Positions 19,416 through 37,149 of a stretch of 64,000 nt of DNA are shown here, one piece after another. Origin of the DNA: Bacteroidota bacterium (GTDB taxonomy: Bacteria > Bacteroidota > Bacteroidia > Chitinophagales > Chitinophagaceae). Each line of letters begins with the position of its first letter. The first letter of the stretch is position 1. The stretch lies in the NCBI GenBank assembly GCA_026391415.1, contig JAPLEL010000098.1, positions 1,162 through 65,161 on the forward strand. The letters are read 5' to 3'. The position numbers and the translations under genes are program-made. The notes under the pieces are model-generated. The model was not told the origin of the DNA, searched no databases, and saw only the letters and a list, made by a program, of their open reading frames with translations.

Positions 19416-19829
19416 TTAGAGTCTAGAACACAGTTCATTTGGAGTCAAAACAAGTATTTCACATGCTTTAAAATCTTTTACATTTCGAGTTACTATACAG
19501 TCCATTTTATCAATAGATGTTGCGCAATAAATTTGTATAGAATCTTCAAAGTCCTTTTGCTTTGACCTTAAGCCTTTTGTAAGCACTTCTGTGTCAACTG
19601 AAATTATTGTCATATATTCAATTAAGCCTAAAAGGGTTTTACGAAGAGAACTATCATCTATAAACTTCTTTAATAAATAATAGGTTGTTGCTATGGAATG
19701 AGATGAAGCAAAAAGTTTTACTTTCTTGTTTTCTGATGCGTTGAAAATTTCAACAGCATATTTGCTAAAAGGCTTTCGATCGGCTAACAGATCCACCAAA
19801 ATATTAGTATCAACGAAAATCTTTTTCAT
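19416..19829 (-). CDS. PIN-domain toxin (VapC-like)
   Basis: The N-terminus FVDTNILVDLL carries the PIN acidic residue. There is a 4-nt overlap with the upstream small antitoxin ORF. Confidence 0.8.
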   Translation of the reverse strand: MKKIFVDTNILVDLLADRKPFSKYAVEIFNASENKKVKLFASSHSIATTYYLLKKFIDDSSLRKTLLGLIEYMTIISVDTEVLTKGLRSKQKDFEDSIQIYCATSIDKMDCIVTRNVKDFKACEILVLTPNELCSRL

Positions 19830-20068
19830 AAGTGTTTTTTCTCCAAATAGTTTTGTAACTCCTTCTTTTCATCGAAGCCTTTCGGAAGCTTAACTGCCCC
19901 AATTAATTTTTTTAACCTTGGAGAAATGTGTTGAGTGCTATTATCTTGAGTTAATGTGTCAAGATACTGTTCAATAAGTCTAGAAAGGCTTCTACCAGAA
20001 ACTTTAGCATAGGACTTTGCCCGCTCAATAACATCTTTCTCAACTGTGAGAGTGAGTTTAGTTGTCAT
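19826..20068 (-). CDS. antitoxin of the PIN toxin (DUF6364-like)
   Basis: 80-aa ORF from the ATG at 20068 (MTTKLTLTVEKDVIERAKSYAK...), translationally coupled to the PIN gene. The longer track ORF runs into a remnant of another gene. Confidence 0.7.
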   Translation of the reverse strand: MTTKLTLTVEKDVIERAKSYAKVSGRSLSRLIEQYLDTLTQDNSTQHISPRLKKLIGAVKLPKGFDEKKELQNYLEKKHL

Positions 20069-20113
20069 AGTACGTGTGTTTTTTTTAAAGATACGTACTA
20101 TGACAACTAAACT
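20055..20113. promoter_or_regulatory. perfect 21-bp inverted repeat spanning the antitoxin start codon
   Basis: AGTTTAGTTGTCATAGTACGT (20055-20075) is the exact reverse complement of ACGTACTATGACAACTAAACT (20093-20113), with a 17-nt spacer. The ATG at 20068 lies inside the left arm. Confidence 0.5.
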
Positions 20114-20132
20114 ATATGTTTTCATAATACTA

Positions 20133-20342
20133 TTTTTTCTCGTTAAAATATTTTATTCTCAAAGCTTCAGCTCTTTCAATTTCTGCTTTTGGGGTTTTGT
20201 CAGTTCTCTTTATGAAGCCATTTGACGAAACTACAATTGTATTTTGTCTATCAGATTTGTCCCAAAATGCAAACAATCTGATATATTGCTTATTATATAA
20301 AGTTCTAAATTCCCAAATTTCTCCATCAAGTTTTTTAAATAA
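20133..20342 (-). pseudogene. 5'-truncated remnant of a HigB/RelE-type (Gp49-like) toxin gene
   Basis: The stretch 20107-20344 aligns by eye at high identity with 24184-24421. The remnant encodes the last 70 codons (LFKKLDGEIWEFRTLYNKQYIRLFAFWDK...KYFNEKK). An in-frame TAA at 20343-20345 lies directly upstream and there is no start codon. Confidence 0.8.
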
Positions 20343-20375
20343 TTACATTTTCTCTAATGTATATGCTACAAAATA

Positions 20376-20735
20376 TCACAATACAATAAAATACAGAATT
20401 GCAATTTTTTGTTGACTTCTTGGTGAACCGTCAATTCGGCCAACAATATTATAATTGCCATCTTTAATTGTGTTACCGTCAATTCGGCCAACAATATTAT
20501 AATTACCGTCTTTAATTATGTTACCGTCAATTCGGCCTATAATATTATAATTACCGTCTTTAATTATGTTACCGTCAATTCGGCCTATAATATTATAATT
20601 ATTATTTTTCACAATATCACCGTCAATACGCAATTGGATATTATAATTTCCATCTTTTACCGTAATTGATTGCGACACTGCGGAGAAACCAAAAAGTGTT
20701 ACTAAAAGAAGACTAAGAAAAATAGTTTTTTTCAT
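20376..20735 (-). CDS. secreted tandem-repeat protein (16-aa KDGNYNIxGRIDGNxI repeats)
   Basis: Signal peptide MKKTIFLSLLLVTLFGFSAVSQS followed by about 5 in-frame 16-aa repeats. The C-terminal tail is non-repeat and may be a truncation read-through. Confidence 0.65.
   Translation of the reverse strand: MKKTIFLSLLLVTLFGFSAVSQSITVKDGNYNIQLRIDGDIVKNNNYNIIGRIDGNIIKDGNYNIIGRIDGNIIKDGNYNIVGRIDGNTIKDGNYNIVGRIDGSPRSQQKIAILYFIVL
20427..20666. repeat. 48-nt tandem repeat, 5 units (coding)
   Basis: Unit starts (ACCGTCAAT...) occur at 20427, 20475, 20523, 20571 and 20619, an exact 48-nt period. Confidence 0.9.
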
Positions 20736-20883
20736 TTTATTATAATTTAAGTTTTGCCTACTTCAAGTTTTTAGGTCTTGTTCGGCATATTCTGACCCGA
20801 TATTATTTTTTGGACTATTCTCTGACTTTTCTTAGTCAGGTTGATTCAGTGGCTTTTGTCTTAATCTTGTTTATTAATATTAC

Positions 20884-20963
20884 CCATAACGGTTTGCGCG
20901 TAGGCGATGTTGTCTTGTGTAGCGCCTGCGGCAAGGCAATATTGCTTACACGCTGTAATAAGC
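20884..20963 (-). repeat. attC-like imperfect palindrome, site 1 (short type)
   Basis: Ends CCATAACGGTTTGCG ... CGCTGTAATAAGC, with the right core degenerate. The inner stem is TTGTCTTG/CAAGGCAA around the conserved loop GCGCCTGCGGCA. It lies 3 nt from the stop of 20967..21395 and is homologous to site 5. Confidence 0.5.
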
Positions 20964-20966
20964 AGA

Positions 20967-23744: not shown

Positions 23745-23880
23745 CCCATAACGTTCCGCCGCTTCATGAAGTGGCGAACTTCGTAACAGCATATTTTCCA
23801 CTAAGAAAATATTTCTTGCGAAAGAAAAATGTGATTTTACCACATTTTTCGCCATTTCTTGAAACGGCTGTTATGCGTTC
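23745..23880 (-). repeat. attC-like imperfect palindrome, site 4 (long type)
   Basis: Ends CCCATAACGTTCCGCC ... ACGGCTGTTATGCGTTCGGC, with an internal hairpin GTTCCGCCGCTTCATGAAGTGGCGAAC. It lies 10 nt from the HigA-like stop and 7 nt from the Fic stop. Confidence 0.5.
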
Positions 23881-23890
23881 GGCAATTTAT

Positions 23891-24202
23891 TTACAGAATT
23901 GCAACTTTTTGATTTAGCAACTCAACATTGAAATTTACCTTTGCATTTAGTGCTTTGAAAACTTTCATTATTGTGTCAAATCGTGCATCAGTTAAGCTAT
24001 TTTCAATTTTCGAAATTTGTGCTTTTTTGACACCAACTAACTCGCCTAATTGCTCTTGAGTTAAATTTCTGTCTTTACGAATTTGCTTGATTGTTTGGCC
24101 AATAAGTTCAAGCTTTAATTCATTTTCAAAAGCATCTCTATTTTGAGTTCCTTTCTTTCCAACGAATTTATCAGTTACTTCATCTAAACTATATGTTTTC
24201 AT
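23891..24202 (-). CDS. XRE-family HTH antitoxin (HigA-like)
   Basis: HTH segment RKDRNLTQEQLGELVGVKKAQISKIENS. It lies 4 nt downstream of the toxin gene, the toxin-first order typical of HigBA. Confidence 0.85.
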   Translation of the reverse strand: MKTYSLDEVTDKFVGKKGTQNRDAFENELKLELIGQTIKQIRKDRNLTQEQLGELVGVKKAQISKIENSLTDARFDTIMKVFKALNAKVNFNVELLNQKVAIL

Positions 24203-24206
24203 AATA

Positions 24207-24545
24207 TTATTTTTTTTCGTTAAAATATTTTATTCTTAAAGCTTCAGCTCTTTCTATTTCTGCTTTTGGAGTTTTATCTGTTTTCTTTATAAAACCATTT
24301 GATGAAACTACGATTGTATCTTGTTTGTTGGACTTGTCCCAAAAAGCAAGTAATCTGATATATTGCTTATTGTACAAAGTTCTAAATTCCCAAATTTCTC
24401 CATCAAGTTTTTTAAATAATTCGTTATCATTTACACTTCTTGATTTCCAAATATTGTAAAGTATTTTTTCTCTTGACTTTTGATCTAAACTTTCCAAAAA
24501 TTCCATTACTGGTTCAAGAAATTCAACTTTGAATTTATATTCCAT
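24207..24545 (-). CDS. type II toxin, RelE/HigB superfamily (phage Gp49-like)
   Basis: 112 aa, with WEFRTLYNKQYIRLLAFWDK typical of Gp49-like killer proteins. It is paired with the HTH antitoxin. Confidence 0.8.
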   Translation of the reverse strand: MEYKFKVEFLEPVMEFLESLDQKSREKILYNIWKSRSVNDNELFKKLDGEIWEFRTLYNKQYIRLLAFWDKSNKQDTIVVSSNGFIKKTDKTPKAEIERAEALRIKYFNEKK

Positions 24546-24630
24546 TTGATGCTTTTAAATTATTTTGGGTAAAGATATAAGTTTCCTTTTTAAGAAACAA
24601 ATTTTCTTAGAATTTTCGGGCGGATTGCTG

Positions 24631-24714
24631 ACGCATAACGGTTTGCGTGCAGGCGATCGTAGCCCTGTGTTGCGCCTGCGGCAGGGCTATGGCGCTTGCA
24701 CGCTGTTATGCGTT
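24631..24714 (-). repeat. attC-like imperfect palindrome, site 5 (short type)
   Basis: ACGCATAACGGTTTGCGTGCAGGCG ... GGCGCTTGCACGCTGTTATGCGT. The inner stem is a perfect TAGCCCTG/CAGGGCTA around the loop GCGCCTGCGG. It lies 6 nt from the stop of 24721..26334. Confidence 0.55.
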
Positions 24715-24720
24715 CGGCTT

Positions 24721-26334
24721 TTAGTCATCGGTCAAAGGTTTTATCATATCAACATAGTTTATTGGTTTTGCTAAAACTGGAACATTGTCTAATGTTTTTC
24801 CGTGTTCAAAAATTTGCCGCCAATAATCGTAGTTCTTTTTACCTGCAAAAATTGTCCCTGCCATACCACGGTCTTTCCAAAGTGGCAATGATTTTAGGTT
24901 TTTTACGAAGTTGGTAATGTTAGTCCAAAGTTGGTCGTCAAACTTTTGTTGGAATACTGAACTTTTGTTGAATTTTTTTCCTGTGTTACTAAAATAGTTA
25001 TTAATAACATCACTTATGTAACTTAACCAACTTATCAAAATTTCTTCTTTACTCATACGATAAGAAATAAGATGATTGTCCGAAATGTCAATATCTTTTC
25101 CATCAACTATTTTGCTTTCAATTCTTGCAACACCGATTTCTGGTTGGAAATTAGAAACATAAATTTCGTCCGCAAGAATGTTTAGTAATTTAATTGCCTG
25201 GGAAATTTCTAATTCTCTTGGATTAAGCCCTTCGTCTGATTTAAAATTTATTGGTGTTGCAAGTAGTTGTTTGCTGTCAATGAAAATTGTCAAAAAAGAC
25301 TTGTCAAAAGCACTATAAGAAATTGGCAATTCTTTCGCTTTACCATCTCTGTCAATGTAGTCTTTCAATTTATTTTCATTAGCTTCTGTTATCGAATGCT
25401 TAATGCTGTCAATGATATATTTTTTAATATTAGCGTTGTCACCTTTAAAATAGTCTACCAATTTTTGTTCAGAAAACGTAAAATCATCTTCTTTAAAACT
25501 ATGGTCTTCTTGATATTTTTTTATTCGTTCGTAATATAGTGTGTTATTTAATTGTCGCATTACCGATTTGTCAAAAGCTATTTGGCTTAAAACACTTCCA
25601 GCATTTGTGTTTGTTTCTGTCAACCTGTCGATATCAGGATCAATAAAAACTCTAATTAAAATTCGTTTGTTGCCCAATAAAATTTGGGCTACCGCTTTAT
25701 GTTGTCCATCGAATATTTTAATTTTATTGTTTTCAACACGTCCTAAACTTAAATGCAACTGGGGATTTTTCTTATCGAATTCCTTTACCAGTTTGCTAAT
25801 ACTGTTATTTATTCCCCTTGGATTTATTAATTCATCGTGATAGATGTATTCAATTGGAAATGAAATGAAGCAGGTTTTTTCATTTGATAAAAAGTCTGTG
25901 TGAACTTCTGTTTCATAAATTTTGTTGTCGCCTAATTCAGAAAAACTGTATGAAAGTTTATCTCCTTTTATTGTAAACTTGAAGTCATGCTTTGAGCCGC
26001 TGTAAGCAACTAAAAGTTGTTTTAATGATGCAGATTTATTTTCTGCTTGTAATGTGTCCTCTTGTATTTTTTTAAGTTTGTAAAGAGTCCGAGCTATTTT
26101 CAAATCAGCGTCTTGTTTTGACTTATTACAACTTTCGTGGGTTACTGCAAAATTCTCTTCACTGTCTTTACCTTTATTAGCCAATGGAGTAATATGGTCA
26201 ATATTTGTCGTGTGAAGTTTTAGGTCTAACGGTTCATTACAAATGAAACATTTGCTGTTTTGAATCTTCCATAATTTCTCAGTCAACTGGTCGTAGTCAA
26301 CTGTCGCTAATGATTTTAAATATTTTGATGCCAT
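24721..26334 (-). CDS. HNH endonuclease fused to a DGQHR/ParB-like (DndB-like) domain
   Basis: N-terminal HNH motif (CFICNEPL...IDHITPLANKGKDSEENFAVTHESCNKSK, nt 26116-26250). A central motif KIFDGQHKAVAQILLG (DGQHK at nt 25696-25710) resembles the DGQHR/DGQQR motif. The long C-terminal region was not assigned. Confidence 0.7.
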   Translation of the reverse strand: MASKYLKSLATVDYDQLTEKLWKIQNSKCFICNEPLDLKLHTTNIDHITPLANKGKDSEENFAVTHESCNKSKQDADLKIARTLYKLKKIQEDTLQAENKSASLKQLLVAYSGSKHDFKFTIKGDKLSYSFSELGDNKIYETEVHTDFLSNEKTCFISFPIEYIYHDELINPRGINNSISKLVKEFDKKNPQLHLSLGRVENNKIKIFDGQHKAVAQILLGNKRILIRVFIDPDIDRLTETNTNAGSVLSQIAFDKSVMRQLNNTLYYERIKKYQEDHSFKEDDFTFSEQKLVDYFKGDNANIKKYIIDSIKHSITEANENKLKDYIDRDGKAKELPISYSAFDKSFLTIFIDSKQLLATPINFKSDEGLNPRELEISQAIKLLNILADEIYVSNFQPEIGVARIESKIVDGKDIDISDNHLISYRMSKEEILISWLSYISDVINNYFSNTGKKFNKSSVFQQKFDDQLWTNITNFVKNLKSLPLWKDRGMAGTIFAGKKNYDYWRQIFEHGKTLDNVPVLAKPINYVDMIKPLTDD

Positions 26335-26381
26335 ATTTTTTTTGTTTGATTTTGTTGTCGTTTGTTTGTTTTATTAAGCTG

Positions 26382-26586
26382 ATGCATAACGGACAGGGCT
26401 TGCTGCTGTGCTGGTATTTTATAATGTCCAGCCCGGAACCGCTGCTGATTGAAAAACTGAAGTTGAAGTTAACAACAAAAAGCTGAACATTGAACGTCGA
26501 GCCCGGACTACTGCTGATAGCGAACAAAAAGATGAGGATTTATTCGTCAGCCAGCATAGCAGCAAACCCCCTGTTGTACGTTCGCC
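26382..26586 (-). repeat. attC-like imperfect palindrome, site 6 (extra long, internal direct repeats)
   Basis: TGCATAACGGACAGGGCTTGCTGCTGTGCTGG pairs with CCAGCATAGCAGCAAACCCCCTGTTGTACG. Internal direct repeats AGCCCGGAACCGCTGCTGAT and AGCCCGGACTACTGCTGAT. About 200 nt long, above the usual attC size. Confidence 0.4.
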
Positions 26587-26651
26587 CTTCGTCTTGGTGT
26601 GTCAAACTAAATACTGTGTCCAATGAAGTAGGGTGTGTCCCGGAAGCGTTG

Positions 26652-26729
26652 GCACAAGGCAGGCTCTTTTGCAAGGTTAGCTTTTGTGTGTCGGCTTTGT
26701 GTGCATTGCAAATGTGCCTGCCTTGGTGC
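26652..26729. other. conserved structured element, copy A (extended hairpin; RNA or ssDNA)
   Basis: Outer stem GCACAAGGCAGGC/GCCTGCCTTGGTGC (13 bp, one bulged G). Inner TTTGCAA/TTGCAAA stem and an apical loop TTAGCTTTTGTGTGTCGGCTTTGTGTG that is shared with copy B. Confidence 0.5.
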
Positions 26730-26856
26730 GTTGGCTAATACTACTGCATCATTGCGTTTATTTTTTTCTGCGACTCGTCCTTAAAACACAACCTGTAATT
26801 CAAAGTCATGGTCTGCCCATTTAAGTAAAAACTTACAAAGATAAAATTGTCTTAAA

Positions 26857-28536
26857 TCATCGTCCGATAACTAAAATTTTTTCACTAAATTCTTCTTTTG
26901 AAATGGCAAGTTTATTTTTAATCTTAATTTTATAGTTATACACCGTTTGAGGGGAGTAGTGCAAAAGCTCAGCTATTCTGGCACTATCATTAATTCCTAA
27001 TCGAATTAGTGCATAAATTCTAAGTTCAGGGGTTAAAATATCTTTTTCTTTAGGATAGATACGTTCGTTTTCAATAAGCATTTCATTAAACTCTTCTATA
27101 AAAGTTGGAAAAATACTCAAAAAAATGGCATCGAAATTCTGAAAAAATTCTTTTAGTTCATTATTAAGTGAATTCTCAAGTGATAATATTCTGATTGCTT
27201 CATCAGTTCGTTGGGTTTTTAACATTCGTTGAAGCCCTAAACGATAGTCGTCAAATTTTCGAATATATAGGGAGTACATTCTGAATACATATGCTATATA
27301 TGCTTCTTTTACATGTTCTGATTCAGAAATTTTATTATTAAGAATTAATAACTGGTTATTCATTGAATTCAATTCCGAGTTTTTTGTTTTCAAAAAACTT
27401 TCGGCTTTAAAAACTTTTTTAAATTGAACATAAATTAAATAGATGGTAATTAGTAAAACAATTACTAATAAAGAAATTATCCATAAATATCGTGTTAGCT
27501 TTTTTTGATTCTCAAGCATTTCCCTGTCGTAACTTGCTGCTATAACAGGTAAATCTTTAGAAATTTCAACCATCCGAAATCTTGCTTTAGCAAATAGAGC
27601 ATCCTCCATACCACATTTCATGTAATTGAAAGCTCTTTTAAATTCACCTTTTTGATATAAAATCAACGCAAGTTTTCTTAGGGCTATGTAGCTTTTTACA
27701 GAATTTTCAATATCCTCAATGGCGGCCATTGCAAGAAAAGTAGTTTGTTTATCTAAATTGCCTACAGCCTCGTAGGCAAGAGCTGTAGGGTAATATAATG
27801 CGGCTGAATCATTATGACTATCATTTTTTTTATACGCAGACAGTGTAGATGATAGTGCCATTTGGGGATTACCATCTTCTAAATATTTACCTGCTAAAAT
27901 AACTTTATAGCTGGTAGAAGAGGAGTCAAAAAAGCCCAGCAATGTGTCTTTTAACGAATTGATATACTGTTTATACTTAAACCCCTCCTCTTCTGAAACA
28001 GCACTATTGTAAAGCAGAAGGTAAGTAGAATGATATACATGATAATAATAGGGTAAAGCTTCCGGGGCTAATTTATCTCTTTTTATTTCCGAAAGAATTT
28101 CAAAGGTTTCTTTATACATTCCCATTTTCCCCATTACATGGGCTATACTCATATAGGCTTCGGACAATAATCCTGGAGCATTCGATTGTTGTGCTATAAT
28201 CCTCTTTTCTTTTGCAACCCGTAGTGCTCCATCTAAATTGTAATGTTCATACTCTTTAAATAATTTATCGAGAATTTTAATTTTTTTTTCTGGAAGGGGT
28301 TCTGAAGCTAATGCTAATTTCAAGCTATCTAATCTATTTTCTTTTTGTGTGCTAAATTCGATTTTTTTCGAAATAGCTACATCTAGTTTCTTAATTAAGT
28401 TTTCAAAGTTTCGTTGACCAAATAAATTAAATGAACTAGCTAAAATTCCTATTGTTATAAAAAATAGACGTTTGTTCACTGGCCTTATCCCTATTAAATT
28501 AAAATCCATAAAAGTATCAGAGTTTTGGCCTATCAC
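26857..28536 (-). CDS. DUF6377-type PUL regulator (TPR-like sensor region, one TM, C-terminal LuxR-like HTH)
   Basis: Mid-protein transmembrane segment (YLWIISLLVIVLLITIYLIYV) and a C-terminal HTH (LTPELRIYALIRLGINDSARIAELLHYSPQTVYNYK). The start may be the ATG at 28509. Confidence 0.7.
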   Translation of the reverse strand: MIGQNSDTFMDFNLIGIRPVNKRLFFITIGILASSFNLFGQRNFENLIKKLDVAISKKIEFSTQKENRLDSLKLALASEPLPEKKIKILDKLFKEYEHYNLDGALRVAKEKRIIAQQSNAPGLLSEAYMSIAHVMGKMGMYKETFEILSEIKRDKLAPEALPYYYHVYHSTYLLLYNSAVSEEEGFKYKQYINSLKDTLLGFFDSSSTSYKVILAGKYLEDGNPQMALSSTLSAYKKNDSHNDSAALYYPTALAYEAVGNLDKQTTFLAMAAIEDIENSVKSYIALRKLALILYQKGEFKRAFNYMKCGMEDALFAKARFRMVEISKDLPVIAASYDREMLENQKKLTRYLWIISLLVIVLLITIYLIYVQFKKVFKAESFLKTKNSELNSMNNQLLILNNKISESEHVKEAYIAYVFRMYSLYIRKFDDYRLGLQRMLKTQRTDEAIRILSLENSLNNELKEFFQNFDAIFLSIFPTFIEEFNEMLIENERIYPKEKDILTPELRIYALIRLGINDSARIAELLHYSPQTVYNYKIKIKNKLAISKEEFSEKILVIGR

Positions 28537-28714
28537 CTTAAATAGGTCGCATAAATCTATAACTTATTAAATTAAAGTAACAGTTTTAAAACAGCTTACT
28601 TGGCAATTGGTAAAAATTCAGATACCTACTTTTTTGTATCGTGGTGTCCTTATTTGAAAATTTAAGGCGTATTAATAACGATAATGCTTAGCATAATACG
28701 TAAAGGCAACTAGA

Positions 28715-30025
28715 TTAATTTACCCCAAGTGCAGTTACTGCATTATTAATAAATGACGAATAATAACTAGACACATCTTCCCAGCGGTAAAAAGGCCAAA
28801 TATTTGAATAAACTTCCGGAATACGAACCTCTTTTTCGTTATAAACAAACTTTGCCAATATTTCTTTTGACTTCTTATTTCTAAAAAAAATAATTTGCAA
28901 ATTAGCTGCCATTGGAGCTACTTCAAAATCTCTCCAATAGCGATAATAATCTAAAGGATTAGTTACACTTGCATATGTATTCTCAATGTGCAAAAGCATG
29001 GCTAAAGGAATGATATTGCCATCATGACCAAATCTTATTGAAGAGCCATGTCTGTTAGTTTTAATGGCAGAGTCTGCCTTGTTTATAATGTCCTGTAAAA
29101 GGGGTTTGGCATTATCCATCATAATTCCTTTATTTACCGCTGCATTAGAATATTGAACATACAAACTATAATTTTTGCATTGCCATAAATTAAAAAGTTC
29201 TTCTTTTTCGAACAAATCAAATAGCGAAATATTCAATTCCGTATTTTGCAGGTTACCTGCAATACTAAATAAATCGAACATAAACTCTGTAGCATTTAGG
29301 CTGTCTGGTAATTGACTGAAATTTATGAATAGTGATTTCAACAGCCTTTCAGGCTTAACATGTTCTTGTACAAATTGGTTATATTCTTTCCGCCAAGTAT
29401 CTTGTGAGTACCTAAAATCAACTGCTTTTTTTGTGTGATGATTTAGATATTGCATATGACTTTCATGAGCATTTGGATTAATGATTAAACTTTTGTTGTT
29501 CTGTTGAAGTTGACTACAAAAAATATTCATACTTTTTACACATCGCCCTACAGTGGTAGACACAGCAGTAATATTGGCTCCATCAGAAAAAACCTGGGGG
29601 TAATTTTTATACATCCGCTGTGCTATATTTTTTATTTGAGAGATACCTAGCGGCGTTAGCTGACCTGCTTTACCATTTACTGAATCACATATCTTTTCAA
29701 TGCGTTTTAGGGCTCCTTTGCCCAAACTTGTAAGATTATTACTATCCTTAGCACTCTTAAATAATTTCAGCACATTAAAATATTCATCCTCACTAGTCAA
29801 ATATCTTGAGCCATGACGGCCAAAATGGCTGATGTAAAAAGGATGATAGCCTTTGGGTGCAGGAGTAACCTTATTTGCATGGTATGGGTAGGCAAAGTTC
29901 ACTCCTCCGAATTTTTCCGGAGAAGTGAATATTTCCTCTTTAGTAGTTTGTGCCTTTGAAACATTTTGCACTGCAACCAAAATCCAGCATAATATTATGG
30001 ACTTAAATAAGAAATTTAATTTCAT
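28715..30025 (-). CDS. secreted histidine phosphatase, branch 2 (histidine acid phosphatase-like)
   Basis: Signal peptide, the RHGSRY catalytic motif (HFGRHGSRYL) and a downstream GHD motif (RFGHDGNIIPL). Confidence 0.8.
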   Translation of the reverse strand: MKLNFLFKSIILCWILVAVQNVSKAQTTKEEIFTSPEKFGGVNFAYPYHANKVTPAPKGYHPFYISHFGRHGSRYLTSEDEYFNVLKLFKSAKDSNNLTSLGKGALKRIEKICDSVNGKAGQLTPLGISQIKNIAQRMYKNYPQVFSDGANITAVSTTVGRCVKSMNIFCSQLQQNNKSLIINPNAHESHMQYLNHHTKKAVDFRYSQDTWRKEYNQFVQEHVKPERLLKSLFINFSQLPDSLNATEFMFDLFSIAGNLQNTELNISLFDLFEKEELFNLWQCKNYSLYVQYSNAAVNKGIMMDNAKPLLQDIINKADSAIKTNRHGSSIRFGHDGNIIPLAMLLHIENTYASVTNPLDYYRYWRDFEVAPMAANLQIIFFRNKKSKEILAKFVYNEKEVRIPEVYSNIWPFYRWEDVSSYYSSFINNAVTALGVN

Positions 30026-30073
30026 GAAAAATGAAGTTTTAAATTAAAAGGCATACTTACTCTATAACGTTAT

Positions 30074-31759
30074 TTATCTGAAATTTGGATTTTGTTGCAA
30101 ATTTGGATTAACAGTAAACTCGTCTTGTGGAATAGGGTATAACTTAAACTTATCATCAACATCCCTACCTATAAAGTTATTGGCTGTGCCATCGCTTCCC
30201 TTCCAGTCCCAGTTGTAATTTTTTGTGTATTTGTTAAATCTAATCAGGTCTGGTCTTCTTACACATTCAGTGTATAATTCTCTTGACCGTTCGTCTAAAA
30301 TAAAATCCAACGTAAGTTGTGCATCGGTTATTCTACCACTAGTTGCACTTCCAAAACTACCCGATAGATAAGCCCTGTCCCTTATTTCATTAACATAACC
30401 CAATGCTTCAAGCCGTGTGCCTCCACCAGCTCTCAATATTGCCTCTGCTGCCATAAGGTAAGCGTCTGCTGTTCTAAACATTGGGTAGTCAACATAACTG
30501 TATGTACTACCACCTACGGCCACATCCTGCCTGTTTTTATATACATTACGCCATTTTATAGTGGCGTAGCCATTCATAAAATCGTTTTGAAATGCAGTAT
30601 TTGGCCTCCAGGTTTCTTTGGTATGGCCGTTAGTAAAAAATTGTGCTCTTTTATCTTTTTTTGTATCGCCCCATGTATCTGTTGTAATAAACAATTGGTC
30701 GGCGGCATCAAATTTGTTTACCAAATTTGTTTTTACTCTTGCATTGCCAAATCCTCTTGCACCAATACCTGTTGTATAGAAGTTGCTCATCCTGCCATTA
30801 ATTAGTGCTTTTATTAACCAACTGGTACCTGCACTATTAATTGTAAATTCTCCGTCTTGTGGCAGAGGCCAAATGATTTCTTTACATGTATGATTATCTG
30901 CTAAAAAAATATGTCTGTAATCTGATGCTAATGGGTATTGGCCATTATTTATTACCATCTTCGAATAATCATATGCTTTTTGGTATTCATTTTTACCAAC
31001 CATTGCTTCGGCATTCAGGTATATTCTTGATAACAAAAACCAGGCAGCAACTTGGTCAACCCGTCCATAAACATTGGCTCCCGGAGCTTTCATTTTAGTT
31101 TTAATATCTTCCAATTCGCTAACTGAGTAATTATAAATTTCTTCCCGGGTTCTCTGCTGCGGTATAGTGCCTACTGGCATGGTTTCATCAATAAAAGGCC
31201 CTGAGCCAAATAAATCGCAAACCATACTATAGCAGTAGCTACGAATAAACCTGGCTTCGGCTCTATAGAATCCTACATTGCCTTGCATTTTATCAAACAA
31301 ACCCCTGCTTCTCAACTTTTCATCAGAAGCCTCCCTTAAGAACTCATTGCAATAAGCAATAGTCATATAAAGCCTGTAATAAGAGTATTTAATTATAACG
31401 GTTGAAGGGTTCCAATTCATAAACAAAAAATCTCTTGAACCTTGTGAGCTTCCTGCATGCAAAGCAATCTCGTCTGTAGCACATTCCTGTAGATAAAATA
31501 TTGCCCTTGTATAGCCGCTATAACCTACATCAAGTCCACCAAGGTCTCCATCTCTGTCCGGGCCATCTTGTCCGTTTAAAATTAGGGAGCCGTATATTTT
31601 TCCCAATACACTCTTATACCCTTCTTCCGTTTTATAAATTTGCTCTGCTTTAAGTACCCTTTCGTTGAGGGGTACTGTATCAAGGTCTTTTACACAGGAA
31701 GTAATTATCGTTGTAAAAAAAACGAAATAGCAAAAGCGAATTATTAATTTATGTTTCAT
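30074..31759 (-). CDS. susD: SusD/RagB family nutrient-binding outer-membrane lipoprotein
   Basis: Lipoprotein signal with Cys (IITSCVKD) and SusD-like length and composition. It lies directly downstream of a SusC-type gene. Confidence 0.9.
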   Translation of the reverse strand: MKHKLIIRFCYFVFFTTIITSCVKDLDTVPLNERVLKAEQIYKTEEGYKSVLGKIYGSLILNGQDGPDRDGDLGGLDVGYSGYTRAIFYLQECATDEIALHAGSSQGSRDFLFMNWNPSTVIIKYSYYRLYMTIAYCNEFLREASDEKLRSRGLFDKMQGNVGFYRAEARFIRSYCYSMVCDLFGSGPFIDETMPVGTIPQQRTREEIYNYSVSELEDIKTKMKAPGANVYGRVDQVAAWFLLSRIYLNAEAMVGKNEYQKAYDYSKMVINNGQYPLASDYRHIFLADNHTCKEIIWPLPQDGEFTINSAGTSWLIKALINGRMSNFYTTGIGARGFGNARVKTNLVNKFDAADQLFITTDTWGDTKKDKRAQFFTNGHTKETWRPNTAFQNDFMNGYATIKWRNVYKNRQDVAVGGSTYSYVDYPMFRTADAYLMAAEAILRAGGGTRLEALGYVNEIRDRAYLSGSFGSATSGRITDAQLTLDFILDERSRELYTECVRRPDLIRFNKYTKNYNWDWKGSDGTANNFIGRDVDDKFKLYPIPQDEFTVNPNLQQNPNFR

Positions 31760-31778
31760 AATAATGACAAGTTTAGAT

Positions 31779-34733
31779 TTAAAAATTAACGTTAGCGGTA
31801 AAAGTCATAATCCTGGGACGTTGATAAATATTATCATCAAGGCCACGGGAAATTTCTGGGTCAACACCAGAATATTTTGTAATCAACAGCATATTTTGTG
31901 CACTTACAGATAACCTTAGTCTGCTTGTTTCACTCCATAACTTCTTCATGGTGTACCCAAGAGTAATATTATCAAATCTGAAAAATGCACCACTTTCCAG
32001 AAAAATATCCGAAAAATATCTTTCCATTGCAAAGCCCCGATTTAAGGCATCTCTTGAAATATTGCCGGAAGTTCCTTGGGCACTGTATAATGACATCAGC
32101 GTTTGCCCGGCTTGTTGGTGGTTAAAAACATAGTTTCCAAAACTACCATGCCCATTAATACCGAAATCCCATGCTTTATAAGTTAACCTTGTACTAAGGC
32201 CATAATAATAGGGAACCAGAGAGCTTTTTCCGGTAATGTGTTTGTTGCCATCTTGTTCACTGGTAGTGAGAACGCCTTTTCTATCAATGTAACTTCCCTC
32301 TATGGGCTTGCCATTATTATCATAAGCTTGTTTCAATAAGAAAAATGTATTAGGTGTATTACCTACTTTATGAATTTGAAAATCACGGCGGCTGATAGTA
32401 CCAGTTTTTACAAAATTGTCATCTGTGTCAATTGTATTAAGCTTGGTAATAGTTGCATTGTTATAGGTAAAGTTTGCATTAACAAGCCACTCTATATTTT
32501 TCTTTTTTATTGGTGTACCGCCTAAGGCCAGTTCTATCCCATTGCCTTTCATACTGCCAATGTTAGTTTCAATGATATTGGTAAAATTGCTACCAGCAGG
32601 AACGGCAATTCTATTTAAGAGGTCGGTAGTAGTACGCCAATACACATCTAAACCACCAAACAATCTATTTTTAAAAAGACCGTAGTCAATACCAATATTA
32701 TAAGTACTTGTAGTTTCCCATTTTATATTGGGGTCGTAACCATTTGGCCTGGCAATGTTAAACCAACCATTGTCAAACAAATATTGTTGTGCGTTGGTTG
32801 AAATAGTATAGGTAGATAGTGCAGGGTGATAACCACCAATATCTTGCTGGCCAGTTTTGCCATAGCTGGCTCTCAATTTTAAATCGGATATTACTTTTAG
32901 CTTTTTAATAAAGGATTCCTCTGATAACTTGTACGCTACTGCACCTGAAGGAAAATAACCCCAACGATTATCTTTTGTAAAACGGGATGACCCATCTGCC
33001 CGTAAGGTTCCTGTTATTAATATTTTTTGCCCTAAGGAGTAGTTTATACGGCCAAAAAACGAAAGTAAATACAATGCATCTTTATCTGGTACTGACGCAT
33101 CTACAACATCTCTAATTATACTTTTAGGGGTATTATTATACCAAAATCGTTGCCACTCATATCCTGCCATTGCATCAATAAGATGTTTGCTACCAATTTT
33201 CTTAGTGTAATTTGCATAAGCAGTAAAAATGTAATTGGTATTCTTGTTTTCTTCTTGAAGTGTACGCCCCCTTCCGTCGTTTCTAACTCCTGTATAAGTT
33301 GCAGGTGCTTTGTCAGGAATGATTTCAGAAAAATTGCGGTTTCTAATGTCGTAACCGAAGTTAATATTAAACCTTAGTGCTTCAAAGCCATGAACTTTAT
33401 AGTCTAAAGCCACATTACCCAAAGCTCTGGCTTCCTTATTTAATCTATTTGTAAGCAAAAGCTCGGCAACAGGATTACTAGGTGCTAAAGAGATAGGATT
33501 ACCACCATTCCGCCATACAAAGTAACCTAACCCAACATCATTAGGTAGAGTTTCATTGACTGGACGAGTAGGGTCAAAGGATATAGCACTGCCTATAACA
33601 CCAGTAGAAACCGGTCTTTCATTTTCCCACATACCTTTAATATTAAAATCAACTGATAAATGTCTATCAAGAAACTTGGGAGAAAGTCCAATACTTACAT
33701 TACTTCTTTGGTAATTGTTTTCTTTTAGAATACCATTTTGGTTGGTATAACCTATTGATAAACGATAGGGTAATTTACCGGGATTTCCATTTACCGAAAT
33801 GTTATGGTCTGTTCCTATACTCGTTCTGTAAATTTCGTTTTGCCAATCTGTTGAAGCAGACCCCAATTGAAAGGTGATTGGTGCATTAGCCTTATCTCTA
33901 AATACTGTACGGTACTCATCGGCAGATAATACATCGTAGTAACTATACGGCTTATTTATCATGAAATTAGTTGTATAGCTAACTTGCGGCTTAGTTTTAC
34001 CCGACGTACCTTTTTTGGTAGTAATGATAACAACACCGTTTGAAGCCCGAGACCCGTAAATAGCAGTGGCAGAGGCATCTTTAAGCACTGTAAAAGACTC
34101 AATATCGTTAGGATTAATTGTACTTAAAGGGGCACTTCCAGCAATTGGTACACCATCAATTACAATCAGTGGGTCGTTTGATGCAGAAAGTGATGCACCC
34201 ATACGTATCCTAATAATGCCTTCGCTACCGGGTGCACCCGTTCCAGGCACCACATTTACTCCTGCAACTTTACCAACTAATGCATCCTGAGCAGTAAGAA
34301 CCATACCTTTATTTAAAGGGTCAAGCTTTATAGTGGTAACGGCACCAGTAACATCACTTTTTTTGGTCTGCCCATAGCCAATTACAACAACCTCATTCAA
34401 CTGTTCGCTTTTAGGCTCCATTGTAATATTAAGGTAGGCTTGATTGGCTTGAACTTCAACGGGGGAATAACCTACATTTGTAACTATCAAAATACTATTT
34501 GATGGTAAACTGATTTTGAAACTCCCGTCAGAATCAGTAGTTGTTTTTTCTAATTTCCCTTTTACACTTACATTTGCCCCGGCAATTGGGAGTCCGGAAG
34601 TTTTGTCGCTAACCTTACCCTTTACCTGTACAACATCTTGGGCAAAAATGATTGTAAAGAAAAATAACTGAGAGAGAGCCATTAGTAGCAGGCTTTTGCT
34701 CATTTTACACTTGAAGCAATTCGTTTTAATCAT
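31779..34733 (-). CDS. susC: SusC/RagA family TonB-dependent receptor
   Basis: N-terminal carboxypeptidase-regulatory-like domain (VKGKVSDKTSGLPIAGANVSVKG), a plug region and a barrel ending in NVNF. The likely true start is the ATG at 34703 (MSKSLLLMAL...). Confidence 0.92.
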   Translation of the reverse strand: MIKTNCFKCKMSKSLLLMALSQLFFFTIIFAQDVVQVKGKVSDKTSGLPIAGANVSVKGKLEKTTTDSDGSFKISLPSNSILIVTNVGYSPVEVQANQAYLNITMEPKSEQLNEVVVIGYGQTKKSDVTGAVTTIKLDPLNKGMVLTAQDALVGKVAGVNVVPGTGAPGSEGIIRIRMGASLSASNDPLIVIDGVPIAGSAPLSTINPNDIESFTVLKDASATAIYGSRASNGVVIITTKKGTSGKTKPQVSYTTNFMINKPYSYYDVLSADEYRTVFRDKANAPITFQLGSASTDWQNEIYRTSIGTDHNISVNGNPGKLPYRLSIGYTNQNGILKENNYQRSNVSIGLSPKFLDRHLSVDFNIKGMWENERPVSTGVIGSAISFDPTRPVNETLPNDVGLGYFVWRNGGNPISLAPSNPVAELLLTNRLNKEARALGNVALDYKVHGFEALRFNINFGYDIRNRNFSEIIPDKAPATYTGVRNDGRGRTLQEENKNTNYIFTAYANYTKKIGSKHLIDAMAGYEWQRFWYNNTPKSIIRDVVDASVPDKDALYLLSFFGRINYSLGQKILITGTLRADGSSRFTKDNRWGYFPSGAVAYKLSEESFIKKLKVISDLKLRASYGKTGQQDIGGYHPALSTYTISTNAQQYLFDNGWFNIARPNGYDPNIKWETTSTYNIGIDYGLFKNRLFGGLDVYWRTTTDLLNRIAVPAGSNFTNIIETNIGSMKGNGIELALGGTPIKKKNIEWLVNANFTYNNATITKLNTIDTDDNFVKTGTISRRDFQIHKVGNTPNTFFLLKQAYDNNGKPIEGSYIDRKGVLTTSEQDGNKHITGKSSLVPYYYGLSTRLTYKAWDFGINGHGSFGNYVFNHQQAGQTLMSLYSAQGTSGNISRDALNRGFAMERYFSDIFLESGAFFRFDNITLGYTMKKLWSETSRLRLSVSAQNMLLITKYSGVDPEISRGLDDNIYQRPRIMTFTANVNF

Positions 34734-35319
34734 AATCCATAGTTTTTGGTTGAAGCATATTTGTAAACCGTGAAGTTATTTTATATGTAACCCCTTTAGA
34801 ACTGTGGTAGAAGTATAAAGTAGGCGTTTATTGCTGATTTAAAATTTTAAGTATTTGATTTTCAATAAATTGCTTTTACAGCATTTCAACCAAAAAGTAT
34901 ATTACTACTAGTGTTTAGGTATATAAACACTGCACCTTTAGCCCAGGCATCAATTAGAATTTTTCCAATTTGTTGCAAGAAATTTGCTTAGTGAACTATG
35001 CTCATACTTTATTCTGCGTAAAACTGGTTTAACCGGCTACCGCAGCGGCTCTATTTTTTATACTGTACTAATTCGGTTGCTTCCCTGCCACGATACTTGG
35101 TTTTTGGTTGTTGAAAGTAGCTCCGCCGATTCCCTCATCAGGGTTTATTTTTTTGCCGAGGCCTGGTCTTAAGATATACTGTTGAATAGTCGAACAAATG
35201 ATAATCGATAATCGTCCGCTGGGTGGTGGGTGGGCTCGGTGTCGAGTAAAGATATATTGCTGAAGTGATTTTTAATGATGATAGATATTCGTCCGCCGGG
35301 GTGGGTGGGCAGTGCGTTG

Positions 35320-35391
35320 GCATTTTTAGCTCTTTGCAAGGTTGGCTTTTGTGTGTCGGCTTTGTGTGCCTTGCAATGTGCTAAAAATAGC
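35320..35391. other. conserved structured element, copy B (extended hairpin; RNA or ssDNA)
   Basis: Outer stem GCATTTTTAGC/GCTAAAAATAGC has a different sequence from copy A but keeps pairing and a bulge. Inner stem TTGCAAGG/CCTTGCAA; apical loop TTGGCTTTTGTGTGTCGGCTTTGTGTG. Confidence 0.5.
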
Positions 35392-35573
35392 TTGGGGTCG
35401 GGTCGGCAAAGTCATGCGAACTTGAATTTGAGTAGGATGCTGTTTAGGGTGACGTACAACTAGTATATACCAGCCATAAAACCACCCCAACCCACCCAAA
35501 TATAAAGCGCTTGGTGCTACTTTATGGCGATTATTTATTTATATAATTATTATGTAATGTATGATTTTAAATA

Positions 35574-36440
35574 CTATAAATCATCAAAGGGGCTTTTAAT
35601 ATTCTGTAAATGATTCGTGCTTACATGGGTGTATATTTCGGTGGTTTTGCTGCTACTGTGGCCTAATAATTCTTGTATATATCGTAAATCGGTTCCGCTT
35701 TCTAATAAATGTGTTGCATAACTATGTCTTAGCCAATGGAGGCTAACTGGTTTTTGAATATTCGCTTTTTCTACAGCTTGCTTTAATACGTTGGCTAAGC
35801 TTCTTTCATCGTAAGGTTCGTTGCCCCTTTGCCCCTCAAACAGCCAAGTAACAGGCTTGTATCCAATATAATAAGTTCGTAATAGGGCTAACACTTTTTG
35901 CGACAAGGGTACTATTCTATCTTTCTTGCCTTTTGCTTGCCTAATAATAATAATGTTTCTTTTTGAGTCTATATCTGCCGGCTTTAAATTTATTAATTCA
36001 TTTCTCCTTAATCCACAGCTATAAATTACCGAAAGCATTGTTTTGTGTTTTATATTACTATGCGCTTCTAATATTTTTTTAATTTCATCTTTACTTAATA
36101 CATTCGGCAATAACTTCTCGCGCCTTGGTCTATGAATTTTATCAATTACAATTTCTATATTTTGTAGTGTGTTAAAATATAATTTAATAGCATTTACTAC
36201 TTGGTTTTGAAACGATGTAGACAGATTTTTTTTAAGAATGTAATGCGTATTATAATTTATTACGTCTTGGTTGGTTAGCGTACTTACTGGCTTATCATTA
36301 AAATACACTAAAAACGATTTTAAGGCTTCTGTATATGTTTTAATGGTACTGGGGCTATACCGTCTAGATTGCAACCATTCTTTAAACGCTTGCAGGTGCT
36401 CGCTGGCTTGTTCTGATATTATTTGTGTGTCTTTTTTCAT
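35574..36440 (-). CDS. tyrosine-type site-specific recombinase (XerC/D-sized, no IntI-specific insertion)
   Basis: SAM-like N-domain (YSPSTIKTYTEALKSFLVYF). Catalytic residues are in context: CGLRRNEL (Arg), HWLRHSYATH (His-x-x-Arg) and LGHSSSKTTEIYTHV (His, Tyr). Confidence 0.9.
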   Translation of the reverse strand: MKKDTQIISEQASEHLQAFKEWLQSRRYSPSTIKTYTEALKSFLVYFNDKPVSTLTNQDVINYNTHYILKKNLSTSFQNQVVNAIKLYFNTLQNIEIVIDKIHRPRREKLLPNVLSKDEIKKILEAHSNIKHKTMLSVIYSCGLRRNELINLKPADIDSKRNIIIIRQAKGKKDRIVPLSQKVLALLRTYYIGYKPVTWLFEGQRGNEPYDERSLANVLKQAVEKANIQKPVSLHWLRHSYATHLLESGTDLRYIQELLGHSSSKTTEIYTHVSTNHLQNIKSPFDDL

Positions 36441-36524
36441 ACATCAATTTAAGCCTTTGAATCAAATTATAACCACCCTAAAATCTTTCTACTTTAAAAA
36501 CCAAAAACCATTTAATTTTACACC

Positions 36525-37112
36525 ATGTATCGCTTGTTAATTCCAATACTTTTTTTGTTTTTATGCAGCTGTGCACCTAGGCCCCATTATACCAATCCGC
36601 ATATTGCTATTCAAACAAAATATGGCGATATTGAATTGGAGTTGTATCCCAAACAAGCGCCCAAAACAGTGGCCGCTTTTTTAAGTTATATCGATTCGGG
36701 TTTTTATAATAATAGTAGTTTTTATAGGGTATTGAATATGGAAAATCAACCGTCAAATGCACCCAAAACCGAATTAATTCAAGGGGGCATTTGGAAAACC
36801 AATTATAAAAAAGCAGTAAGCGTAAAAGGCATTGACCACGAAAGCACCCAACAAACAAAAATACTTCATACCGAAGGAACCATCTCTTTGGCAAGGGCCG
36901 CACCGGGCACCGCAGGCACAGAATTTTTTATTGTGATTGGCAACCAACCCGGATTAGATGTTGGCGGCGAAAACTGCGAAGATCGTTTGGGCTATGCTGC
37001 TTTTGGAAGGGTTGTAAAAGGCCTTGACCTGGTTTTTAAAATATCTGGTCAAAAATCGAATGGGCAATATTTTTCGCCCATGGTAGACATTTATAATATC
37101 GTTAAACTATAA
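36525..37112 (+). CDS. cyclophilin-type peptidylprolyl isomerase (lipoprotein)
   Basis: Lipobox (FLFLCSC) and cyclophilin motifs (FYRV, GTISLARAAPGTAGTEFFI). Confidence 0.88.
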   Translation: MYRLLIPILFLFLCSCAPRPHYTNPHIAIQTKYGDIELELYPKQAPKTVAAFLSYIDSGFYNNSSFYRVLNMENQPSNAPKTELIQGGIWKTNYKKAVSVKGIDHESTQQTKILHTEGTISLARAAPGTAGTEFFIVIGNQPGLDVGGENCEDRLGYAAFGRVVKGLDLVFKISGQKSNGQYFSPMVDIYNIVKL

Positions 37113-37149
37113 GGGTTAATCTTTTTAACTTTGAGCACTAATTAGCCCC

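Follow-up and report, generated by a model that had tools for sequence, protein, structure and literature searches.

Two copies of a structured hairpin frame an 8.6-kb gene cluster on contig JAPLEL010000098.1 of a freshwater Chitinophagaceae bacterium (Bacteroidota; assembly GCA_026391415.1), within the 64,000 nucleotides analysed here (the window). The hairpins most likely mark the spot at which large multi-gene cargo is exchanged. The framed unit is best described as part of a previously undescribed Bacteroidota integron-like array, with the hairpin akin to attC/att sites. We lean towards reading the hairpin unit as an att-like recombination junction, or docking site, for multi-gene cargo, probably acting as a folded bottom strand and lying in a cassette devoid of open reading frames (ORFs).

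Anatomy and covariation of the hairpin

A covariance model built from 40 diverse copies of the hairpin matched the window exactly twice, at 26641-26738 (108 bits; hairpin A, the attL-like copy) and 35309-35402 (91 bits; hairpin B, the attR-like copy), both on the + strand. The two are co-oriented (direct) repeats of ~95 nt each with a common core of 44 nt at 95% identity. A search for the 25-nt loop string gave these two occurrences and no more, compared to none expected from shuffles. Two copies with a near-identical core had been proposed here by a first-pass annotation made from the sequence, and the fold and the covariance model confirmed both copies. The extent of ~91 nt given at that time was too narrow, as flanking direct-repeat boxes and larger conserved blocks surround each hairpin.

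In hairpin A, the left box GCGTTGGC (26646-26653) is followed by an outer stem, GCACAAGGCAGGC/GCCTGCCTTGgTGC (26652-26664 / 26716-26729), with a bulged G, an inner stem, TTTTGCAAGG / CATTGCAAA, and a 27-nt loop containing a tandem of GCTTT(T)GTGTG, and the right box GCGTTGGC lies at 26728-26735. Hairpin B has the same core, with its left box GCGTTGGC at 35314-35321, its outer stem GCATTTTTAGC/GCTAAAAATaGC at 35320-35330 / 35380-35391 and a degenerate right box, GCTTGGGG, at 35390-35397. All of these parts are given on the + strand, and the 8-nt box GCGTTGGC on both hairpin flanks is a direct repeat on that one strand. Both hairpins adopt a two-tier fold with a single bulged purine within the 3' arm. 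The earlier statements that the unrelated outer stems still pair, with one bulged base per right arm, and that the loop is a tandem repeat stand. The folding energies on the + strand were -39.6 kcal/mol for hairpin A and -29.2 kcal/mol for hairpin B (z about -3), compared to -28.7 and -20.5 kcal/mol, respectively, on the - strand, which folds worse.

A scan of one genome per species, requiring the exact loop pattern, revealed at least 119 hairpin loci, nearly all of them in Bacteroidota. Carriers among the matches listed include Chitinophagaceae, Sediminibacterium, Ferruginibacter, Flavobacterium, Gillisia, Pedobacter, Cytophagales and Saprospiraceae. The near-invariance of the loop is partly an artefact because the exact loop pattern was a requirement of the scan, and a second loop variant, GGCTTTGTGTCGGGGTTTTGTGTGCC, was present among copies found by BLAST. 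Across species the core and both boxes are near-constant, and the outer stem falls into at least eight unrelated sequence families, every one of which pairs (for example, CACAAGGCAGGC/GCCTGaCTTGgTG, CATTTTTAGC/GCTAAAAATaG, GAAAGCAAGC/GCTTGCTTT, CTATTGCAG/CTGCAATgTG and CAATTACAG/CTGTAATTgTG). The stem base of the main family is GCACAAG/CTTGgTGC, and it differs in the other families. The bulged purine is located 3-4 bp from the stem base in most stem families and is conserved in at least five. Recombinases and transposases that read structure use features of this kind, here an unpaired purine kept at one distance from the base of otherwise unrelated stems. The hairpin had no match in 2.9 million viral contigs and none in a phage collection, and one unannotated, decayed hairpin pair was found on an Adhaeribacter plasmid. 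Hairpin sequence was also present in sludge metatranscriptome contigs at depths of 130-500; these contigs are strandless and possibly include DNA.

In an alignment of 40 sequences, 92.6% of cells paired compared to 83.7 +/- 0.7 in column shuffles, none of 500 of which reached the observed value. Changes on both sides occurred at 9 of the 13 outer-helix pairs, and sliding the partners by 1-3 columns left only 25-49% of cells paired. The inner stem is near-invariant, and thus uninformative on pairing, with one exception, TTGCTTTTTT/AAAAAAGCAA. Since 1-nt indels occur on both sides of the inner stem and the ATG is not conserved, a conserved reading frame is ruled out. An ORF beginning MTLPTRP that runs through hairpin B on the - strand at some loci was rejected as a peptide, given GTCATGG versus GTCTTGG and frame-shifting indels between stem families. 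The covariation, the frame-breaking indels and the non-conserved ATG together uphold the earlier proposal that selection acts on structure rather than on a peptide. Wobbles at Watson-Crick positions, read on the + strand, were G.T in 63 cells at 14 positions compared to A.C in 21 cells at 9 positions, which suggests that folding takes place on the + strand; this strand is antisense to the cargo and forms the bottom strand of the array.

The two window hairpins belong to different stem families and yet each is self-complementary, which places any crossover that created them at or outside the stem, at a box, and not in the core. Recombinant hairpins with arms from two different stem families were found at four other loci (L104, L094, L106 and L041), indicating that crossovers inside the conserved core also occur. 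In a few copies a ~20-nt mini-hairpin, GTCCCGnnnnnnnnCGGGAT, replaces part of the inner stem, on the left in L017, L062, L077 and L115 and on the right in L054 and L119, so this tiny palindromic insertion recurs at two mirror positions.

No T tract follows either hairpin on either strand, so the element is not an intrinsic (Rho-independent) terminator, in agreement with the first-pass annotation. Rfam gave no match at the gathering threshold over the whole window and, in E-value mode around both hairpins, only chance-level matches to miRNA-like hairpins (E 0.6-8). ARAGORN detected neither tRNA nor tmRNA in the window; the unit is therefore not an island in such an RNA gene. A search by eye of the hairpin and the repeats to the left of hairpin B (B-left, below) for Bacteroidota promoter motifs (-33 TTTG / -7 TAnnTTTG) gave partial matches only. 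The element matches no known repeat family or insertion sequence (IS) terminus. Terminal inverted repeats of an IS or a miniature inverted-repeat transposable element were rejected because the arms vary while the interior is conserved, and because almost every copy is flanked by one and the same 8-mer, whereas target duplications would differ between insertions. Of the candidates first listed for the element, a recombinase-bound structure or a folded single-stranded recombination site is favoured, and a small RNA drew no Rfam match.

Cargo, empty frames and the recombinase-led array

Comparison by BLAST of the window surroundings against the hairpin loci delimited two conserved, non-coding blocks. 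Block A (~26362-26740) consists of an attC-like palindrome, which we call A1, then a linker and hairpin A. Block B (35197-35460) comprises hairpin B with direct repeats on its left and a 69-nt tail on its right. As in the window, cargo lies between an A block and a B block at ~30 loci, and at several loci A1 lies directly after B, as in consecutive units.

A1 (26384..26579, - strand) is a 196-nt imperfect palindrome at the 3' end of the framed cassette. Its boxes on the cargo (-) strand are R''=GTACAAC (26579->26573) and R'=G|TTATGC (26390->26384). The AAC/GTT boxes are invariant, the spacer is asymmetric and unpaired, 9 pairs of the 18-bp stem show compensatory changes and the top of ~145 nt is variable. 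A1-only copies stand in tandem at a spacing of 0.8-1.7 kb at several loci. Judged on this anatomy, the compensatory pairs and the tandem arrays with ORFs, A1 conforms to attC. A homology between the hairpin arms and the A1 arms was considered and dropped, as the local alignment was no better than shuffles (p about 0.06-0.5). In sludge metatranscriptome contigs (runs X26 and X30) A1 (26384-26576) reached depths of 200-1250, above those of the hairpin, which may reflect a stable structured RNA fragment or many collapsed paralogues.

The linker (A2-left, 26580..26645, + strand), GTTCGCCCTTCGTC...GTGTCC...GGGTGTGTCCCGGAA, always lies between an attC-type R box and hairpin A in other species. On the other side of the cargo, B-left (35197..35313, + strand) consists in the window of two direct repeats, GTCCGC - GGGTGGTGGGTGGGC - GGTGTCGAG/GTGCGTTGGC. 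Across loci there are one or two copies, each with GTCCGC, a G-rich box and a GTGCGTTGGC-like segment. B-left always accompanies cargo and is a candidate arm-type site. The tail (B-right, 35392..35460, + strand) always ends ...GGGTGAC-GTACAAC; read on the - strand, it forms the first 69 nt of the cassette, starting TTGTAC after the G|TT junction (between 35460 and 35459). G-rich boxes lie at 35225-35239 and 35297-35310 (+; GGGTGGTGGGTGGGC) and, as GGGTGGGTTGGGGTGG, at 35481-35496 (-) in the attI-like region described below, and each is followed, 5-22 nt downstream on its own strand, by a G|TT-type box. These boxes are G-quadruplex-capable and similar to E. coli Chi (GCTGGTGG).

Thirty hairpin pairs bracket cargo, all of them co-oriented, with cargo of 1.7-8.6 kb (median 4.3 kb). 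The window cargo (26739..35196, - strand) is an 8.6-kb gene cluster, a SusC/SusD utilisation locus, that encodes a SusR-family regulator/DUF6377 protein (26857-28536), a histidine phosphatase (28715-30025), SusD (30074-31759) and a SusC/TonB-dependent receptor (31779-34733), all on the - strand. At other loci the cargo is mostly restriction-modification or defence and differs from locus to locus, including type I and type IIG restriction-modification, methyltransferases with XRE/C-protein regulators, and TIR-, caspase- and OLD-like proteins. Across the 30 framed cargoes, 94% of coding bases are opposite to the better-folding hairpin strand.

The borders of the cargo are fixed relative to the hairpins. 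At many loci the last cargo stop codon is 0-4 nt from the box after hairpin A, and homology ends 0-4 nt from this box and at the distal end of B-left. Operators and promoters specific to each cargo (e.g. TTGACAATTTTGTCAA) are located between the first cargo gene and B-left, which places hairpin B upstream of the cargo promoter. At four loci (L018, L039, L054 and L068) the same cargo gene and hairpin (85-97% identity) are joined to divergent linkers (~62%) and to unrelated attC types (~40%). The gene abutting hairpin A at these loci is ~780 nt long (1945-2700 in L018) and 85-92% identical, and the remaining cargo differs, indicating that the cargo itself is mosaic.

Metagenomes were scanned for a chimeric pattern in which the left flank of the A side and the right flank of the B side meet across one hairpin. 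Two contigs (L128 and L129) carried such single-hairpin empty frames, and the covariance model found one copy in each. Their layout is an attC-like palindrome, the linker, one hairpin, a B tail ending GTACAAC and the next attC-like palindrome, with neither cargo nor B-left. The empty frame thus amounts to ~230 nt of ORF-less cassette content followed by an attC-like site. Single-hairpin frames between A- and B-side flanks indicate that cargo enters and leaves at the hairpin unit, and comparison of empty with framed loci shows that the occupied state equals the empty frame plus cargo, the B-left arm and a second hairpin. All four site types have a segment of about 100 nt in common, which includes the hairpin and extends from CTGTGCGTTGGC to GGTGCGTTGG.

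Upstream of the framed unit, which is the array's first cassette, lies a gene for a tyrosine recombinase of 288 aa (35574..36440, - strand), which is co-oriented with the cassettes and is the sole tyrosine recombinase in the window. Profile and PDB matches assign it to the XerA/integron-integrase type, with archaeal XerA as the best PDB match, followed by VchIntIA, and the catalytic residues R..K..HxxR..H..Y are all present. It scored 232.9 against the NCBIfam model NF040815 ('site-specific tyrosine recombinase/integron integrase'; cut-off 220) and 213.9 against TIGR02249, under the cut-off of 265. The ~40-residue IntI-specific insertion that marks a canonical integron integrase is missing (~24 residues in the segment compared to ~66 in VchIntIA). 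The organism of the window is a Sediminibacterium, the name carried by a 98%-identical protein. Recombinase homologues in three Chitinophagaceae loci (L104, L036 and L024) are 413-422 aa long and have a ~130-aa N-terminal extension, MKQVxLKPLxHR...IGIYF...RWS...CWYVP, which is absent from the window recombinase and may be an extra DNA-binding domain. The orientation of the recombinase gene is known from the 'inverted integrase' group, in which intI is co-oriented with the cassettes (PMC4889954).

An attI-like region (35461..35573, - strand) extends from the recombinase stop codon to the first cassette. We compared the window with two conspecific contigs (L121 and L122) of the same UvrB-peptidyl-prolyl isomerase-recombinase synteny. 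They are identical for 114 nt beyond the stop codon, as far as ...GGCTGGTATATACTAG|TT, and then diverge. Past ACTAG|TT, the window (TTGTAC..) continues with TTGTACGTCACCC into block B. One strain continues with TTATCTG into a DUF6364/PIN pair, which lies at 20125-19416 in the window, so this strain is without the whole 15-kb array. Another continues with TTATGTG into a gene for a 179-aa protein and a NERD gene. The 6-nt TTxxxx after each G follows the downstream cassette and not the upstream palindrome, which by analogy is integron-like behaviour. In three freshwater metagenome populations (X10, X11 and X14) 24000-24646 and 35458-38000 were present and the 10.8 kb between them (24647-35457) was absent. 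The borders of strain variation are at A1/short-palindrome boxes and at ACTAG|TT, not at the hairpins. An attI-like region beside the recombinase gene, insertion at G|TT and variation between strains are all features expected of an integron. A minor contig of X10 (24642 / 35456) joins ...GCATAACGGT to ACAACTAG..., and its joint keeps both 7-nt boxes (GTTGTAC-CG-TTATGC, - strand), unlike the single G|TT of canonical cassette loss.

The next cassette (26389->24639), which encodes an HNH and DGQHR-motif protein, ends in a short attC-like palindrome of 83 nt, ACGCATAAC...GTTATGCGT (24631..24713, - strand), which is the left boundary of the strain-variable block. A second copy (20882..20965, - strand) lies downstream of a 142-aa ORF, extending the array to about 20.1 kb. 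These palindromes were located by BLAST with palindromes, as an ungapped palindrome scan missed them owing to bulges. A remnant lies at 23867-23883. The k-mer depth of the short palindrome in freshwater metagenomes was 256-491 compared to ~9-90 for its flanks, suggesting that it is highly multi-copy in freshwater communities.

A related array occurs in Flavobacterium psychrophilum, where a 347-aa recombinase, 74% identical to that of the window, heads a co-oriented array of small ORFs. Palindromes of 130-190 nt with xxCCAAC...GTTGGyr boxes and an ATAG|TTGCC junction lie between the ORFs. The R' boxes of this Flavobacterium attC family (GTTGGTG/GTTGGCA) are matched in the hairpin by GTYGGC motifs, of which it has 4-5, all co-oriented. 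In one F. psychrophilum locus (L120, 14299-17417) ~500-nt blocks (GTGCCGAATCGACTCTGGTTAC...AACTAAACGCAAAAAA) are repeated 3-4 times between attC-like palindromes, as ORF-poor repeated cassettes.

A proposed docking site and its alternatives

In the arrangement we propose, the empty cassette, read on the cargo strand, would consist of G|TTGTAC, the 69-nt tail, one hairpin, the 66-nt linker and the attC-like palindrome. The cargo module would carry one to several genes, its own promoter, a direct-repeat arm of one to two copies (B-left) and its own hairpin copy. Recombination of this module with the resident hairpin would leave the cargo flanked by two co-oriented hairpins, as at 26641-26738 and 35309-35402. 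The whole framed unit would remain one integron-type cassette, G|TT-bounded and beside the XerA/IntI-like recombinase. Such an exchange would be site-specific and not simply homologous. By analogy with attC, the substrate would be the array's bottom strand, which is antisense to the cargo, in its folded form, and the neighbouring recombinase family would presumably supply the enzyme; the identity of the enzyme and the single-strand mechanism are less certain than the junction itself.

Comparison with known systems places the hairpin near attC and lambda-type att sites without equating it with either. Like attC sites (e.g. Vibrio cholerae repeats), it is an imperfect palindrome conserved in structure over sequence with an extrahelical base, it stands right after the stop codons of captured genes, folding of the strand opposite the ORFs is favoured, and it occurs in arrays of G|TT-bounded cassettes beside an Xer/IntI-type tyrosine recombinase. 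In contrast to attC, the core and loop are conserved and the outer stem is variable. The paired RYYYAAC/GTTRRRY boxes of attC are replaced by GCGTTGGC on both flanks of the same strand (GTTGGC...GTTGGC). Instead of one 3' site per cassette with G|TT crossover at the borders, two copies bracket the cargo of an occupied cassette, with the attC-like palindrome A1 66 nt away. As in lambda-type attB/attP/attL/attR, there is one copy in the empty state and two direct copies around the insert in the occupied state, and a repeat-bearing arm, here B-left, is found only in the incoming module, as in attP. The differences are that the module encodes no integrase, that the identity segment is a ~100-nt hairpin compared to a duplex core of 7-20 bp, and that the 'attB' lies inside a mobile integron-type cassette and not in a tRNA or housekeeping gene.

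Other known elements share single aspects of the unit. The pdif/dif modules of Acinetobacter plasmids and IMEX are likewise recombinase-free gene modules with sites for an Xer-type enzyme in trans, and carry toxin-antitoxin and accessory genes as cargo, but pdif sites are 28-bp duplex XerC/XerD sites of alternating orientation, whereas the hairpins are co-oriented, ~100 nt long and nested in attC-bounded cassettes. The empty frames resemble ORF-less integron cassettes in being ORF-less and followed by an attC-like site. To our knowledge, no cassette of this kind is known to take up multi-gene cargo secondarily by acting as a docking site.

Several observations weigh against a docking site. Empty frames were not found among 129 hairpins of the genome sample; they are rare, and ordinary homologous recombination between two ~100-nt repeats could yield them. 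Crossovers in the core are also more in keeping with homologous exchange than with cleavage at one defined box. In four freshwater metagenomes, the Logan contigs contained no hairpin-to-hairpin joint, excision product, circle or junction read, and a 172-nt contig that appeared to go back from B to A1 had 6 mismatches and represents a paralogous B->A1 junction. The hairpin is without the paired AAC/GTT R box of attC, its boxes being direct and not inverted, and the recombinase is without the insertion with which IntI reads extrahelical bases. The array functions hairpin-free in F. psychrophilum as well as in the conspecific strains. Only about 6 of the 119 loci listed have a recombinase gene within 8 kb of the hairpin. 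The wobble counts are phylogenetically non-independent, and 14 versus 9 positions alone is not significant. Finally, the high depth of the sequence in metatranscriptome contigs leaves room for a role in RNA.

Such a role is taken up by an explanation that we consider unlikely, namely that the hairpin is a transcriptional insulator or mRNA-end element, acting in RNA or on RNA polymerase, that walls off a self-regulated cargo operon. Hairpin B would then block read-through from the recombinase or upstream cassettes ahead of the cargo promoter, termination or stabilisation of the cargo transcript ahead of the attC site would fall to hairpin A, and cargo turnover would be a by-product of homologous recombination between the two repeats. 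The distance of 0-4 nt from the last cargo stop codon to hairpin A at many loci, the position of hairpin B upstream of the cargo promoter, the strength of the hairpins, the depths of 130-1250 of hairpin and A1 sequences in sludge metatranscriptome contigs and the many restriction-modification or toxin-like cargoes, which need tight autonomous control, are all consistent with this. Termination, however, needs no 27-nt loop, conserved bulge or flanking boxes, and the T/U tract is missing on both strands. The wobble bias points to the strand antisense to the cargo transcripts, and the metatranscriptome contigs are strandless and may include DNA. Insulation also leaves unexplained B-left, B-right and the empty single-hairpin cassette, in which there is nothing to insulate. 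A small structured RNA, either cis-antisense or trans-acting, transcribed from the + strand or processed from cassette transcripts, would account for the covariation, for G.U-type pairs being tolerated on the + strand and for the sequence occurring in RNA libraries. It has no Rfam family and no promoter or terminator that would delimit a discrete transcript, and the fixed positions at cargo borders and the empty and occupied states are features at the DNA level; we regard it as the most improbable of the explanations weighed here.

Hardly more probable is that the blocks are the ends of a non-autonomous single-strand transposon (HUH/IS200-IS605-like, IS91- or Helitron-like) or of another transposon moved in trans, with A2-hairpin A as the left end, B-left-hairpin B-B-right as the right end and the attC-box junction as the target. 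The two subterminal, directly oriented hairpins, each with a bulged base and with one strand folding preferentially, resemble those of IS200/IS605 and IS91/Helitron elements, which also lie at both ends of a mobile segment; conserved terminal blocks surround variable cargo, and the element always abuts attC R boxes of several attC types. The use of attC sites as targets is known from IS1111-attC elements and group IIC-attC introns. Nevertheless, the loci and their surroundings have no recurrent transposase, whether HUH, DEDD or other, and the hairpins are several times larger than those of the HUH elements. Conservation of the interior with variable stem arms is also opposite to the pattern of transposon ends. 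The empty frames keep both 'ends' and one hairpin, which is an att-type outcome and not that of transposon excision.

The array suggests that an integron-like platform is widespread among Chitinophagaceae, Flavobacterium and their relatives, one that would not satisfy the integrase criterion of IntegronFinder. We know of the core sequence from no publication, and no description of integron-like arrays in Flavobacterium or Chitinophagaceae was found in a literature search whose incomplete coverage makes this absence of evidence only. Integrons are considered scarce or missing in Bacteroidota, where IntegronFinder 2.0 detected a single complete integron, in Salinibacter, and otherwise In0 elements only (PMC9024848). 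Their cassettes have been viewed as necessarily short, promoter-less and for the most part single-gene, since recombination declines with cassette length (bioRxiv 10.1101/2024.07.02.601686). As a tentative extension, short of probable, Bacteroidota may possess a two-tier form of gene capture, in which an Xer-like platform without the IntI insertion is combined with an ORF-less 'adaptor' cassette whose hairpin docks promoter-bearing multi-gene modules of 2-9 kb, such as defence systems and utilisation loci. A two-tier system would allow cargo to exceed the size limit that applies to ordinary cassettes and might shed light on cassette formation. A docking site would explain the circulation of entire defence systems and utilisation loci among these abundant bacteria of freshwater, soil and sludge, would make the ~100-nt unit a sequence tag for mining cargo from metagenomes and would provide a new structure-specific recombination site for tool building. 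Even if the hairpin were only an insulator, it would be a portable, phylum-wide expression frame.

Other contents of the array

The rest of the window array contains toxin-antitoxin pairs, a SoFic-like gene and a gene for an HNH and DGQHR-motif protein, content that by analogy is typical of chromosomal integrons. The last of these, a 537-aa cassette protein (24721-26334, - strand), has an N-terminal HNH motif and a DGQHK (DndB/DGQHR-like) motif. Its match to a PADLOC family is limited to HNH, and it may be an uncharacterised defence gene. An IscB/HEARO omega-RNA was considered and rejected, as the match was to HNH only (28 bits against a cut-off of 175) and no homologue is present in any of the 119 loci listed. 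GC skew, examined for the replication strand, was dominated by gene orientation and was uninformative.

Two repeats were also observed. A 241-nt direct repeat with 90% identity (20104-20344 and 24181-24421) overlaps a HigB/HigA-like pair (23891-24545) and the region upstream of the antitoxin gene at 19826-20125, and is possibly a duplicated toxin-antitoxin fragment within the array. A 119-aa ORF at 20376-20735 (- strand) has a signal-peptide-like start and five tandem repeats of 48 nt (16 aa), GNYNI(I/V)GRIDGN(I/T)IKD.

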